Source: a virus
Lineage: Duplodnaviria > Heunggongvirae > Uroviricota > Caudoviricetes
IMG/VR virus record: IMGVR_UViG_2519899565_000007
Length of the DNA: 22,986 nt
Reading direction: 5' to 3' (one strand)
The notes below the pieces were generated by a model. The model searched no databases. It was not told the DNA's origin and was given only the letters and a program-made list of their open reading frames with translations. Made by a program: the position numbers and the translations under genes. Below are positions 1,580-22,445 of the stretch, piece by piece (within the stretch, counting starts at the first letter, position 1; each line of letters starts with the position of its first letter).

Positions 1580-1646
1580 ATTACCTGAAAAACCACATAT
1601 GGATATATAACCCATAAATACGAACAGATATTACCTTTCAGGTGAT
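1580..1646. repeat. Copy 1 of a shared regulatory element: ATTACC-N5-AACCACATATG ... ACGNACA ... 17-bp palindrome ATTACCTTTCAGGTGAT (1630-1646)
   Basis: Direct comparison with 18509-18587: identical ATTACC, AACCACATATG and ATTACCTTTCAGGT blocks in the same order and orientation. Lies in the divergent region between the tailspike start and the plus-strand 85-aa gene. Confidence 0.7.
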
Positions 1647-1682: not shown

Positions 1683-1702
1683 TACTGTATATTTATACAG
1701 TT
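1683..1702 (+). promoter_or_regulatory. LexA (SOS) box TACTGTATATTTATACAGTT, immediately after a -35-like TTGATA (1679-1684)
   Basis: CTGT-N8-ACAG with AT-rich centre; 18/20 match to the E. coli consensus TACTGTATATATATACAGTA. Arrangement resembles the recA promoter (TTGATA followed directly by the LexA box). The -10 is weak (TATTGC at 1702-1707). Sits 20 bp upstream of the ATG at 1722. Confidence 0.75.
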
Positions 1703-1721: not shown

Positions 1722-1979
1722 ATGCAGCAGTATCACTATCCACTGGAAGACGGATTTACCGAAAGGATTCACACGCCGGGAGGCGTCAGGTCACTGGTGG
1801 AGGGATCGCACTTGATGAAATTACTCCGGGATCTCGATAAGGATGGATTTAATGTCGATGGCCCACTTGCCGAACTGACTGCACTGATTAACTACGTCAC
1901 CAGCTCACAGATGTCTATGCAGGATCTGCAAACACATCTCGACTATTGTGCCGAACAATTACGAAAACAAACCACATAA
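1722..1979 (+). CDS. Hypothetical 85-aa protein, putatively SOS-regulated; antisense to the structural operon
   Basis: ORF track 1704..1979 starts at TTG; in-frame ATG at 1722 has GGAG at 1710-1713. Soluble, no recognisable family. Confidence 0.55.
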   Translation: MQQYHYPLEDGFTERIHTPGGVRSLVEGSHLMKLLRDLDKDGFNVDGPLAELTALINYVTSSQMSMQDLQTHLDYCAEQLRKQTT

Positions 1980-18508: not shown

Positions 18509-18587
18509 ATTACCAATTTAACCACATATGATTTATTTATCGTAGATAGTTGACATTTAACGCACAAATTATTACCTTTCAGGTAAT
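18509..18587. repeat. Copy 2 of the shared regulatory element, with a 12-bp insertion carrying TTGACA (18550-18555); perfect 17-bp palindrome ATTACCTTTCAGGTAAT (18571-18587)
   Basis: See copy 1; lies between the minus-strand 68-aa/portal genes and the plus-strand tRNA unit. Confidence 0.7.
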
Positions 18588-18908: not shown

Positions 18909-18985
18909 GTGGCATTAGCTCAGTTGGACAGAGCAACCGCCTTCTAAGCGGTTGGTCGCAGGTTCGAATCCTGCATGCCACGCCA
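18909..18985 (+). tRNA. tRNA-Arg (anticodon UCU), argU-like, CCA encoded
   Basis: Hand-folded cloverleaf: acceptor GTGGCAT/ATGCCAC, U8-A9, D-arm GCTC-AGTTGGACA-GAGC, anticodon arm ACCGC-CTTCTAA-GCGGT (UCU at 18943-18945), T-arm GCAGG-TTCGAAT-CCTGC, discriminator G, CCA. D, anticodon and T arms match E. coli argU as recalled. Confidence 0.9.
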
Positions 18986-19645: not shown

Positions 19646-21121
19646 TTAAGCATAAGGGTCATAATCCGTTATGGCCCTTCCCTGCTGGCTTTGCTGTCCT
19701 GGTATATTTATGCGTTTCGAGACCGGGAAAGCAAACGTCAGCAGTAGCGCATCGCCTTTACCAGGAGAACGCCCAAGACGCTCTTTGATATCTTCCTTCG
19801 GTTCGATAACGATTTTACCGTCCACACGAACTTTGTACTCTGCCGCCGACAGGTCGTCTGCAGTTTCTTGGTCATCCAGCATGCCGCCCAGCCTCAGCCA
19901 TGTCTTACATGAGTTGAACATCTCCCCACGCTTGTTAAGCATCTGCGGGTCAGTGGACGCACCGCCGAACGGAACAAGTTGCCATGTACGTCCCCAGCCA
20001 TCACCGATTGACTTCAAACCGGTTCCATAACCGAAGTCGATGAACACCGCGTCAGCCTGATACTGGTCTTCAAAGTCAGCGATACGCTTCGCCATAATCA
20101 GATCGTCGGTGGTCTTGTTACCAGTCCATAGCACCTTACTGTGCAGCCCCTGCCGCAGGTATATCACAGCGTCATCAACGCCGGAGTATGCCGGGTCAAC
20201 GCCGATTATCACCGGAGCATGTGCAACCTGCGCAGCGGTTACCACCCGTTTCATTGCCTCGTCAGTAAGGCCGGTAGGGATAAACTGCAATTCAGATGCA
20301 TCCGGGAATATGCCGCGCACACGGATTTTAACGAAGTCGCTGTCTTCCCCGTAGTCATCAACCCATTTCTGCAACTGCTGTTTGTTAGTGCCTTCCACCG
20401 TCCGGCTGTCAATCTGCGCAGTTTTCCAGCGGTGTTTATATTTGCGGAAACATTCGCGGAAACGCCCGGTGTTACGTGTAGGGTTTCCGAATGCCACCCA
20501 GATAATCTCAGTGTCTTCGTCCGTCAGCGCACCCTCTGCTACCTCCCACACCAGATCGGCAATGTTGGATGCTTCGTCGAATACCACGATGATGCGTTTG
20601 CGCTCGTTGTGTAGTCCGGCGAATGCCTCAGTGTTGTGCTCAGACCAGGGGATTGCGTCAGCTCGCCACCGCTTGTCGTGCCCAGGGTCATTGCTGTACA
20701 TCGCGGTAGCGGTACAGGTAAACCAGTCTTTCGTGATAGCAAGGTTCGACCACTTGATAATTTCCGGCCAAGTCTTCGTTCGTAGCTGGTTTTCGGTGTT
20801 GGCGGTCACCACGACCTTACAATCCTCGCAAGTGGACATGCCCCAGTTGATCAGCATTGAGATGAATGCGGATTTACCAATACCGTGACCAGAAGCACGT
20901 GTCAGCATAAGCGGCTGATATCGCGTCTCTGGATTCTGCAGGTGATCACGTATCTCTCGGAACGCATCGGCCTGCCACTGACGTGGACCGGTGGCATGTG
21001 CCAGTTCAGTACCCTCTTCCCCCCACGGGAACGCATAGAGGGCATAGCCAAGCGGATCGTGAGTGAACCCTGCAATATCCTCGATTAACTGCTCTTCAGG
21101 AGATAACGCTGTATCTGTCAC
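19646..21121 (-). CDS. Terminase large subunit (491 aa)
   Basis: Size and position; ATPase-like segments (VVVTANTENQ, Walker-B-like VVFDEASN) and a C-terminal Asp-rich nuclease-like region (VIIGVDPAYSGVDDAVIY); GTG start at 21121 overlapping the small-terminase stop (GTGA). Confidence 0.85.
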   Translation of the reverse strand: MTDTALSPEEQLIEDIAGFTHDPLGYALYAFPWGEEGTELAHATGPRQWQADAFREIRDHLQNPETRYQPLMLTRASGHGIGKSAFISMLINWGMSTCEDCKVVVTANTENQLRTKTWPEIIKWSNLAITKDWFTCTATAMYSNDPGHDKRWRADAIPWSEHNTEAFAGLHNERKRIIVVFDEASNIADLVWEVAEGALTDEDTEIIWVAFGNPTRNTGRFRECFRKYKHRWKTAQIDSRTVEGTNKQQLQKWVDDYGEDSDFVKIRVRGIFPDASELQFIPTGLTDEAMKRVVTAAQVAHAPVIIGVDPAYSGVDDAVIYLRQGLHSKVLWTGNKTTDDLIMAKRIADFEDQYQADAVFIDFGYGTGLKSIGDGWGRTWQLVPFGGASTDPQMLNKRGEMFNSCKTWLRLGGMLDDQETADDLSAAEYKVRVDGKIVIEPKEDIKERLGRSPGKGDALLLTFAFPVSKRINIPGQQSQQGRAITDYDPYA

Positions 21122-21714
21122 TGATTGCCATCCTGACGTTCTTTCAGTCTCTTCCTGGCTGCCGCTATGCGATCAGCAATTGTCACATTCACATTAACAT
21201 CCAGGCGTTCTTTGAATGCGTTGACGTCGACGTGCTTACCAATCAGTTCGAGGTTCTTCACCTTGTCAGGCCATTTAATTTTTTTGAGGATTGTCTCTAT
21301 CGAATCCTCGTTCATGTTCATGATGGTCGATGACAGATCAAAGCCACTAAGCGTAGTGCGCCAGATTTTCGGCCACTCACGGATTGGTTTAAGGCTCCCA
21401 TCGTCGTTGAGGATATCGATCACGTCCATCTGGTCGATCTCCACCAGGCGCATGAGAACGTAATCAGCACTGACGCGCATTCGTTTGTTGCGCTCCTCCA
21501 TCAACTCGGCAATCCGTTTTTGAATGCGTTCATCGCGCATCATGACACTGGCTTTAACTGCCGCTGTATTTGGGGAGAATCCTGCGTTAATCGCTGCCTG
21601 AGTCTGGTTTTCAGGCGTTTTGATGTATGACTGGCAATAAGCCTCCTGCATTGCTGTTAGTGGCTTAAATTGCGTTGATTTGCGTTTATAGGTTTTAGGT
21701 TCAGCAGGCATCAT
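21118..21714 (-). CDS. Terminase small subunit (P27-like family), about 198 aa
   Basis: Immediately upstream of and coupled to the large terminase; motifs ...AINAGFSPNTAAVKAS... and ...LELIGKH... typical of phage small terminases as recalled. ORF-track start 21792 is TTG; tandem ATGs at 21714/21711 follow GGTGG. Confidence 0.75.
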   Translation of the reverse strand: MMPAEPKTYKRKSTQFKPLTAMQEAYCQSYIKTPENQTQAAINAGFSPNTAAVKASVMMRDERIQKRIAELMEERNKRMRVSADYVLMRLVEIDQMDVIDILNDDGSLKPIREWPKIWRTTLSGFDLSSTIMNMNEDSIETILKKIKWPDKVKNLELIGKHVDVNAFKERLDVNVNVTIADRIAAARKRLKERQDGNQ

Positions 21715-21721
21715 AACCACC

Positions 21722-21753
21722 GTGGTAATAGTTACCGTTGTGGTAATAGTACC
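21722..21753. repeat. Tandem imperfect direct repeat GTGGTAATAGTTACC / GTGGTAATAGT-ACC just upstream of the small-terminase start
   Basis: Two ~15-bp units separated by GTT; each contains GGTAA-N-TTACC-like half-sites related to the ATTACC/GGTAAT half-sites of the 17-bp palindrome. Confidence 0.55.
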
Positions 21754-21756
21754 ATG

Positions 21757-21783
21757 CAAAATAAAGCCGCCATAGTTGGCGGC
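21757..21783 (-). terminator. Intrinsic terminator (GCCGCC-N6-GGCGGC followed by UUUAUUUUG on the minus strand) upstream of the terminase genes
   Basis: 6-bp GC stem 21766-21771/21778-21783; minus-strand T-tract is the rc of 21757-21765. Confidence 0.65.
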
Positions 21784-21824
21784 AGTATTCAAAACACATC
21801 AAATTCATCATGCATAATCCACTC

Positions 21825-21836
21825 GTGACATGTCAC
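21825..21836. repeat. 12-bp palindrome GTGACATGTCAC (copy c), overlapping the stop codon of the minus-strand gene 21833..22171
   Basis: Exact match to copy a; same register relative to the TGA stop (G-TGA-CATGTCAC on the minus strand). Confidence 0.7.
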
Positions 21837-22171
21837 ACTATTAATTTCGTTTCATGCCAGCCTTTAGTCACCCAGCATTGCGAGTCACCATTGCACGGGC
21901 ATGAATTAACTGGAACTCTCTCGCCGCACTTACCGCAACGTTTTCTGCTGATCGATTTTATACGCCCGCGCACGCGTGCATCATCCTGGCGGATCAGTAA
22001 CGCTATATACTCACCAAATTCGTAAGGCGCACGCCCGGGGCGACGCGTGGCACAGTTACGCTCCAGCATTTCAATTTCCTGAGCATCAAGCACAATTTCC
22101 AGCTTACGCACACCAGATGCAGCTTGTCTGGCTCTCTGAGCGGCTTTGCGCTCTGCTGCTGATTTAGCCAT
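21833..22171 (-). CDS. Hypothetical basic protein with C-terminal Cys-rich zinc-ribbon-like motif (112 aa)
   Basis: ATG at 22171 (ORF-track start 22174 is TTG); CGKCG...CPC motif; 8-nt overlap with the upstream gene. Confidence 0.55.
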   Translation of the reverse strand: MAKSAAERKAAQRARQAASGVRKLEIVLDAQEIEMLERNCATRRPGRAPYEFGEYIALLIRQDDARVRGRIKSISRKRCGKCGERVPVNSCPCNGDSQCWVTKGWHETKLIV

Positions 22172-22445
22172 CAATATTTACCTTTATCGCGAACACCTTT
22201 ACCGGTTTATCACCGAAGTGGGGATGTGTGATTGTCTTGATTTCATATCCGTCATACGGGACGTTAATTCTGCGGCTGGAGTCGTCGCGCTTCGGATATC
22301 CCTTTGTGATAATCAGACGGTCATACTTACGGTTAACGAGGCGCTTTTTCCAGTAGTCATTACACAGGCGATACTCTTCCGTTTTCTCTCCGCGAATCAT
22401 GGCATCGAAGTATTCACCTTTGACGGCAAGTTGCAGGTTAGCCAT
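22164..22445 (-). CDS. Hypothetical phage protein (93 aa)
   Basis: ATG at 22445 overlapping the upstream stop by 8 nt (ATGGCTAA). Confidence 0.55.
   Translation of the reverse strand: MANLQLAVKGEYFDAMIRGEKTEEYRLCNDYWKKRLVNRKYDRLIITKGYPKRDDSSRRINVPYDGYEIKTITHPHFGDKPVKVFAIKVNIDG

Follow-up and report, generated by a model that had tools for sequence, protein, structure and literature searches.

Organization of the terS junction

The window, that is the whole stretch of 22,986 nucleotides analysed here, was found to belong to a Uetakevirus (epsilon15/phiV10/SPC32H-like) prophage of E. coli. The guaA-integrated prophage of E. coli 10153 is 100% identical to the whole window and O157 typing phage 9 is 97% identical to it, while the identity of the region is 97-98% to O157 typing phages 9 and 10, TL-2011b, ZX5 and phiV10, and about 80% to Salmonella phages epsilon15, SPN1S and SPC32H, all of these being Uetakeviruses. 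At least 80% of the window is present in 280 of 5,426 complete genomes; Uetakevirus prophages of this type are common in E. coli, and serve as reporter and typing phages. Between the terminase and head operons lies a tRNA (18909-18982, plus strand; tRNA-Arg in the host genome record), which is on the strand opposite to both operons and adjoins a Gp49-family gene. After an Rfam scan of the whole window, this tRNA was the sole match and nothing was found at the terS junction.

On the minus strand, the stop codon of a 113-aa open reading frame (21833-22174) is followed in order by a hairpin, its tail TTTATTTTG and the stretch CATGGTACTATTACCACAACGGTAACTATTACCACGGTGGTTATGATGCC, leading to the small terminase gene terS. 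Between the end of the U-tract (21757) and the conserved ATG of terS (21711) there are 45 nt. The first-pass annotation of this DNA had described about 45 nt filled by repeats in front of the small-terminase start, and this description holds. The features discussed below are collected in Table 1.

Table 1. Features of the terS junction and of related control sites (window coordinates unless marked L007)
Feature	Position	Strand	Remarks
Tailspike, head and lysis element, CATATGTGGTT(T/A)	1590-1601; 18519-18530; L007 11818-11829	- (window copies)	
Predicted operator between tailspike and divergent ant gene	1630..1646		1 mismatch; rank 3, 16.8 bits
LexA box CTGTATATTTATACAG	1685-1700		upstream of ant
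Antirepressor gene ant	1722..1979	+	88% identical to gene annotated ant in SPC32H
Perfect predicted operator ATTACCTTTCAGGTAAT	18571..18587		upstream of head-gene operon; rank 1, 22.6 bits; the 17-bp palindrome of the first-pass annotation
Small terminase gene terS (197 aa)	21118..21711	-	ATG 21711-21709; Pfam Terminase_2 match from residue 19
Predicted operator O2 (proximal, weaker), ATTACCACGGTGGTTAT	21713..21729		ATTACC-ACGGT-GGTTAT on minus strand; 1 mismatch
Shine-Dalgarno sequence GGTGG	21717..21721	-	5 nt upstream of ATG 21711, inside O2; kept in nearly all relatives
Predicted operator O1 (distal), ATTACCACAACGGTAAC	21731..21747		ATTACC-ACAAC-GGTAAC on minus strand; 1 mismatch to ATTACC-N5-GGTAAT
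Predicted extended -10, TGgTACTAT	21746..21754	-	TG 21754-21753; hexamer TACTAT 21751-21746
Intrinsic terminator	21757..21783	-	end of upstream early-right operon; stem-loop 21783-21766, U-tract 21765-21757

The terminator and the sequence upstream of terS

By a terminator scan, the hairpin was found to consist of the stem GCCGCCA-ACTA-TGGCGGC, in which six of the 7 bp are G-C pairs, followed by the tail down to 21757. The predicted RNA fold has an energy of -18.8 kcal/mol (z = -4.3), which was equalled by none of 200 shuffled sequences. The element thus has what defines an intrinsic terminator, a G+C-rich hairpin with a U-tract behind it, closing a transcription unit. Its orthologous hairpin in epsilon15, located at 39646-39672 where the linearised record ends, carries the annotation of a rho-independent terminator. 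The terminator that had been read from the letters at first inspection is therefore confirmed as a hairpin with a U-tract. The three-gene unit that it was said to end turned out to be an effect of the window edge, as in the full prophage the upstream genes continue in a long minus-strand run, and the 135-aa open reading frame of the window is the truncated end of a DUF551 gene. For the 113-aa upstream protein no match in Pfam or NCBIfam was detected, hence no Q-like family. In epsilon15 the gene just upstream of terS carries the label 'transcriptional regulator'. From the upstream gene to the terminator, the window-like and epsilon15-like groups do not share a conserved sequence.

Two other elements were noted in this upstream part. 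At the stop codon of the 113-aa gene, and overlapping it, lies a 12-bp perfect palindrome, GTGACATGTCAC (21825-21836), which is kept in epsilon15 and many relatives with the 113-aa gene, and is absent where the upstream gene differs. The phiV10 record starts within GTGACATGTCAC, and this start was considered as a cos or pac end; since it falls precisely on the stop codon that closes the last gene, it looks like an arbitrary linearisation. Just upstream of the terminator, ATGCATGATGAATTTGATGTGTTTTGA (21788-21814, minus strand) resembles the 3' coding end (YDEFDGL and stop) of another gene, which stands upstream in relatives such as L160 and L009, and this stretch looks like the relic of a mosaic recombination junction.

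Predicted tandem operators O1 and O2

Using a repeat finder, we found the exact 11-nt repeat GTGGTAATAGT twice (21722-21732 and 21740-21750) with a period of 18 bp. Two direct repeats of about 15 bp had been listed for this region; the repetition stands as the exact 11-nt repeat with its 18-bp period, but one of the two 15-mers lacks a base of the other (GTTACC versus GTACC). These direct repeats are in fact out of register, each being composed of the right half of one palindrome and the left half of the next, and the 18-bp periodicity arises because two 17-bp inverted repeats, O1 and O2, adjoin. O2 starts one base after O1, extends over the Shine-Dalgarno sequence, and leaves 1 nt between its end and the conserved start codon. 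The half-sites that the repeats had been said to share with a 17-bp palindrome are indeed those of the perfect ATTACCTTTCAGGTAAT in front of the head-gene operon.

A weight matrix, constructed only from the immunity-region operators of epsilon15, SPC32H and the window prophage, was scanned over the window. Among the 22,970 window positions, O1 ranked second with 18.8 bits, and O2 ranked fourth with 10.3 bits, the best background match (rank 5) being at 10.26 bits. On score, O1 is a clear operator as far as binding can be predicted, and its ortholog in epsilon15 is annotated as 'protein_bind: repressor' at 12-27. O2 is weak on score alone and would be a marginal site, its assignment coming from the context; part of its conservation could stem from the Shine-Dalgarno sequence and the start codon contained in O2.

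The prophage encodes a candidate for the protein that binds these sites, a 194-aa HTH protein (L007 40609-41193), which shares 42% identity with epsilon15 gp38 and, over the full length, matches SPC32H Rep (PDB 5D50) with E = 4e-42. Rep is known to bind palindromic sites as a tetramer and to be released by Ant (PMC9638917). The features expected of Rep operators are found together here: a 17-bp palindrome, a cognate repressor encoded by a gene that is itself flanked by the motif, an annotated ortholog, and half-sites under selection with free spacers. A repeat-binding regulator was one option raised in the first-pass annotation, and it is this option that gains from the repressor-operator motif, the epsilon15 annotation, the cognate Rep homolog and the matrix ranks. 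O1 and O2 are thus supported as probable tandem operators of the epsilon15/SPC32H-type prophage repressor. One Rep tetramer might bridge O1 and O2; the distance between O1 and O2, however, is not constant among relatives (18-20 bp, about 1.7-1.9 helical turns), and this is a poor fit to a rigid bridging tetramer. The LexA box upstream of ant, together with an Ant so similar to that of SPC32H, makes it very likely that the window prophage is induced through the LexA-Ant-Rep route rather than by RecA cleavage of the repressor.

Distribution of the operator motif

The motif ATTACC-N5-GGTAAT, with up to two mismatches allowed, was observed five times in the window against 0.63 expected, a number reached by none of 100 shuffled sequences, and two of the five matches form the tandem pair at 21713-21729 and 21731-21747. 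At the same threshold the count was 18 for epsilon15 (1.15 expected from shuffles), 18 for SPC32H (0.91), 15 for typing phage 9 (1.27) and 14 for the full window prophage (1.41). In the latter the matches are mostly intergenic, being located on both flanks of rep and upstream of DUF1064 (nin-like), early-left, lysis, tailspike/ant, head and terS genes; those adjoining rep are at 40538, 41250 and 41312 of L007. The motif occurs on both strands, and in untranscribed positions as well. The orthologs of the head-operon operator (2931-2947) and of the tailspike/ant operator (19895-19911) are also annotated in epsilon15, the former as a repressor site.

At the early-left and DUF1064 promoters, which are outside the window (L007 38145-38223 and 41250-41328), the operators form pairs 62 bp apart. 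This distance, centre to centre, corresponds to about six helical turns, and the terS and rep-cro operators are adjacent at 17-20 bp, which suggests that the tetrameric repressor may use two binding geometries, looping and side by side.

Among the more distant terS homologs scanned (L017-L087), the motif was detected upstream of terS in two, one of them perfect (L018), and as judged from this survey the terS control unit is specific to epsilon15-like phages. No set with an altered operator specificity, as would serve a covariation test, was found among the terS homologs scanned.

A different element, CATATGTGGTT(T/A), is common to the tailspike, head and lysis upstream regions, with a TA-rich, -10-like hexamer 6 nt further on. 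A copy with one mismatch is located in the DUF1064 promoter, and terS has none in its upstream region. A late activator may act through this element. Its enrichment over the whole prophage is weak; the CATATGTGGTTT motif, counted with up to two mismatches, gave 10 matches versus 4.3 expected, a count of 10 being reached by 1 of 100 shuffles.

Conservation of the terS junction among relatives

We recovered the terS junction from 160 loci of bacterial genomes and IMG/VR contigs, which gave about 28 distinct sequences. Across these variants the half-sites are fixed and the spacers vary. In 15 distinct close variants, all equal in length, the 28 anchor positions (half-sites, TG and the TA..AT of the -10) are without variation, as against variation at 6 of the 14 positions that make up the spacers, the inter-operator gap and 'n' (our own Fisher calculation gives p about 6e-4). 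With the half-sites alone, the difference is 0 of 24 positions against 3 of 10 spacer positions, and each of the four bases occurs at the centre of O2 among the variants. In the divergent groups, the operators are kept with 0-2 mismatches (1-2 in the O2 half-sites), while the inter-operator gap ranges from 1 to 3 bases, giving the spacing of 18-20 bp.

Two groups, L008/L146 and L010/L166/L167, carry a different upstream gene and no terminator adjoining terS; a search near terS revealed no hairpin for L010 and, for L008, just a weak one located in coding sequence about 110 nt upstream. In both groups the block TGnTA(C/G)TAT-O1-O2-SD-ATG is intact. Since relatives that lack the terminator keep the TGn-10, the operators and the Shine-Dalgarno sequence, the terS control unit is independent of the terminator.

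A predicted promoter of terS-terL

A consensus scan from the terminator to the ATG gave no -35/-10 pair. Extended -10 (TGn) promoters of sigma-70 have TG at -15/-14 and do not require a -35 hexamer. Directly upstream of O1, we noticed TG, one base and a hexamer with T1, A2 and T6, as is characteristic of an extended -10, and the last two bases of this hexamer are the first two bases of O1. In the relatives the block reads TGtTACTAT, TGtTAGTAT, TGaTAGTAT, TGaTACTAT or TGgTATTAT, and thus TG, TA and AT are invariant in the approximately 28 junction variants, while n (g, t or a) and the middle of the hexamer vary. Because TGNTANNAT is expected about ten times by chance per window, it is this conservation that carries the promoter prediction. 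The same block was also considered as a third operator half-site, GGTACT, upstream of O1; relatives read GTTACT, GTTAGT, GATAGT or GATACT at this place, indicating that it is not maintained as an operator half-site and is better explained as TGn-10. An extended -10 is predicted from this pattern, in which TG is fixed and n is free. Transcription would then start near 21739. An alternative -10 might lie at the A/T-rich O1/O2 junction (AACTAT, 21733-21728; TAAAAT in group D), and with either choice of -10 the operators overlap the core promoter.

The earlier view that the repeats leave no space for a conventional promoter is contradicted by the other promoters of this phage family. The early-left promoter, TTGACA-17-AATTAT|TACC, has a good -35 and its -10 and operator overlap in the register seen at terS. 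The DUF1064 promoter, TTGATT-17-TTTAAT|TACC, likewise has a good -35 and a terS-like -10/operator register; its operator overlaps the Shine-Dalgarno sequence, with the ATG following 2 nt later, and the space taken up is similarly small to that at terS. Promoter, operator and ribosome-binding site are thus routinely placed within about 50 nt, and the argument from lack of space fails, the more so as the extended -10 is invariant in all junction variants.

Alternative explanations for the repeats

Readthrough or antitermination control had been suggested for the packaging genes, in which case terS-terL would lack its own promoter, be expressed through the terminator at 21783-21757, and have the repeats as an accessory or roadblock site. 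The strong terminator at only 45 nt from the ATG, the weak promoter-like match GTGACA-18-CATGAT upstream of the terminator (21836-21807), the lack of a -35/-10 pair between terminator and ATG, and the 'transcriptional regulator' label on the epsilon15 gene just upstream all agree with such control. We nevertheless regard it as improbable: in L008, L010, L166 and L167 the TGn-10, the two operators and the Shine-Dalgarno sequence are present with no terminator adjoining terS and an unrelated upstream gene, the invariant TG with variable n is the signature of an extended -10, the sequence between upstream gene and terminator differs between window-like and epsilon15-like phages, and the 113-aa protein has no match to a Q-like family. 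In an arrangement of the lambda PR'-tR' type the terminator would be an integral and conserved part, whereas here relatives keep the unit without an adjoining terminator. Even less probable is the recognition of the repeats by the small terminase as a pac or cosB-like packaging signal beside terS. The position directly upstream of terS would fit, as the R sites of lambda are located upstream of Nu1, and the database records of several relatives are linearised near the terS junction. These record starts, however, are not the same in all relatives and fall on the ends of genes or terminators, pointing to arbitrary linearisation, and epsilon15 annotates the sites as repressor sites. The motif is present in at least ten other places per genome, concentrated at rep and other promoters (14-18 copies per genome in all); as a packaging signal must be unique, a multi-copy motif largely excludes this function.

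The repeats could also be coding, if terS started at TTG 21792 and they encoded TITTTVTITTVV. The reading frame is indeed open from 21792, and PGAP/RefSeq (NZ_AP027191.1) and phiV10 place the start there, giving a protein of 224 aa (21118-21792, minus strand; L007 34618-35292). However, this TTG is located just upstream of the terminator, and the extension would run through the terminator hairpin and the operators. Relatives have in-frame stops at 6-42 nt before the conserved ATG, and their TG and ATG are 43, 44 or 45 nt apart, which shifts the frame; these stops and frameshifts exclude the coding reading, to which we give the lowest probability of all. In addition, polymorphisms within the putative extension are mostly non-synonymous, the codon at the centre of O2 has each of the four bases at its position 2 (giving Thr, Met, Lys or Arg), and the ATG start is annotated in epsilon15, SPC32H and typing phage 9. 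A neighbouring ATG at 21714 is lost in relative L133. On these comparisons, TTG 21792 is an over-extension and ATG 21711 the predicted real start of terS. A translational operator, likewise proposed at first inspection, would require the palindromes to fold in the mRNA leader and there to sequester the Shine-Dalgarno sequence or bind a protein. O2 is palindromic and contains the Shine-Dalgarno sequence, and a small hairpin can be drawn; yet the predicted leader fold (-9.3 kcal/mol, z = -0.84) was matched by 37 of 200 shuffles, Rfam gave no match at the junction, and the motif behaves as a DNA operator, being present on both strands, in untranscribed positions and at many places of no relevance to translation. 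Control at the RNA level is therefore about as unlikely as a packaging signal.

A model for repressor control of the terminase operon

Taken together, these observations make it highly probable that the 45 nt between the terminator and terS constitute a self-contained promoter-operator-RBS unit under the control of the prophage repressor. The terminator at 21783-21757 would stop transcription from the long early-right operon and thereby insulate terS-terL. Directly after it, the extended -10 (21754-21746) would work without a -35 hexamer. O1 (21747-21731), starting within the last two bases of the -10, would cover the predicted start site, and O2 (21729-21713) would cover the Shine-Dalgarno sequence GGTGG up to just before the ATG at 21711. 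The ATTACC-N5-GGTAAT palindromes would be recognised by the tetrameric repressors of the epsilon15 gp38/SPC32H Rep family. With Rep at O1 and O2, RNA polymerase would be blocked at the terS-terL promoter in the lysogen; upon SOS induction, LexA would release ant, Ant would disassemble Rep, and the terminase operon would be expressed.

Going beyond this model, terS-terL might represent a separate regulatory class in Uetakeviruses, with an activator-independent extended -10 held off only by the double Rep operator, while the head, tailspike and lysis operons share CATATGTGGTT-N6-TAxT and are presumably late-activated. We consider this doubtful. If true, the terminase would be made once Rep is lifted, or would leak in partial derepression, with the possible consequence of an early packaging competence, or of a role of terminase outside packaging in lysogens.

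The main elements of the control described here are already known, as the orthologous site is annotated in the epsilon15 record and the Rep-Ant system is characterised in SPC32H. In the accessible literature that we searched, no description of these operators was found, and the ZX5 paper offers no details on an operator or promoter of terS. What we add is small: a second predicted operator over the ribosome-binding site, a predicted extended -10 that is conserved, and a corrected start of terS. No new kind of mechanism is involved, and the value is mainly practical: knowledge of the terS promoter-operator helps in phage engineering and in the interpretation of induction data, and the start correction recovers a compact control region that automated annotation had swallowed into coding sequence.

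Comparison with epsilon15, SPC32H and lambda

The closest parallel is epsilon15, of which the record (NC_004775.2 / AY150271.2) lists seven 'protein_bind: repressor' / lysogeny features. Its terS junction has the sequence TGtTACTATTACCAAAACGGTAATtATTACTTCGGTGGTAACaATG, and the architecture is as in the window: the repressor site at 12-27 lies directly upstream of terS (47-643) and right after the terminator (39646-39672), which ends a gp49-like gene. The motif ATTACC-N5-GGTAAT and TGnTACTAT are shared, as is a tandem second site 18 bp downstream (29-45, 2 mismatches). The record annotates the distal site only, leaving the proximal site over the Shine-Dalgarno sequence and the extended -10 without annotation. 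The spacers are ACAAC and ACGGT in the window as against AAAAC and TCGGT in epsilon15, and the two repressors are only 42% identical.

The window prophage is like SPC32H in having a Rep homolog, an Ant with a LexA box, and the operator motif at matching genomic positions; in SPC32H these include a perfect operator at 11-27 upstream of terS, where Rep would be expected to bind. The lysis-lysogeny switch of SPC32H is reportedly made of Rep, Ant and LexA, the Rep structure being available as PDB 5D50/5D4Z, and Rep is said not to be cleaved by RecA but to be removed by the antirepressor.

With the OR and OL regions of lambda, the window prophage shares tandem 17-bp palindromic operators over a core promoter and a repressor gene flanked by multiple operators. 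The lambda repressor acts only at PR, PL and PRM, and the late genes including Nu1-A are expressed through Q antitermination from PR'. Unlike lambda, the window prophage carries operator-motif sites directly at the terminase, head, tailspike and lysis operons, and its Rep would, by what is said of the SPC32H protein, be removed by an antirepressor instead of RecA cleavage. The location of Rep-type sites directly at the terminase, head, tailspike/ant and lysis operons thus differs from the single-late-transcript model of lambda.
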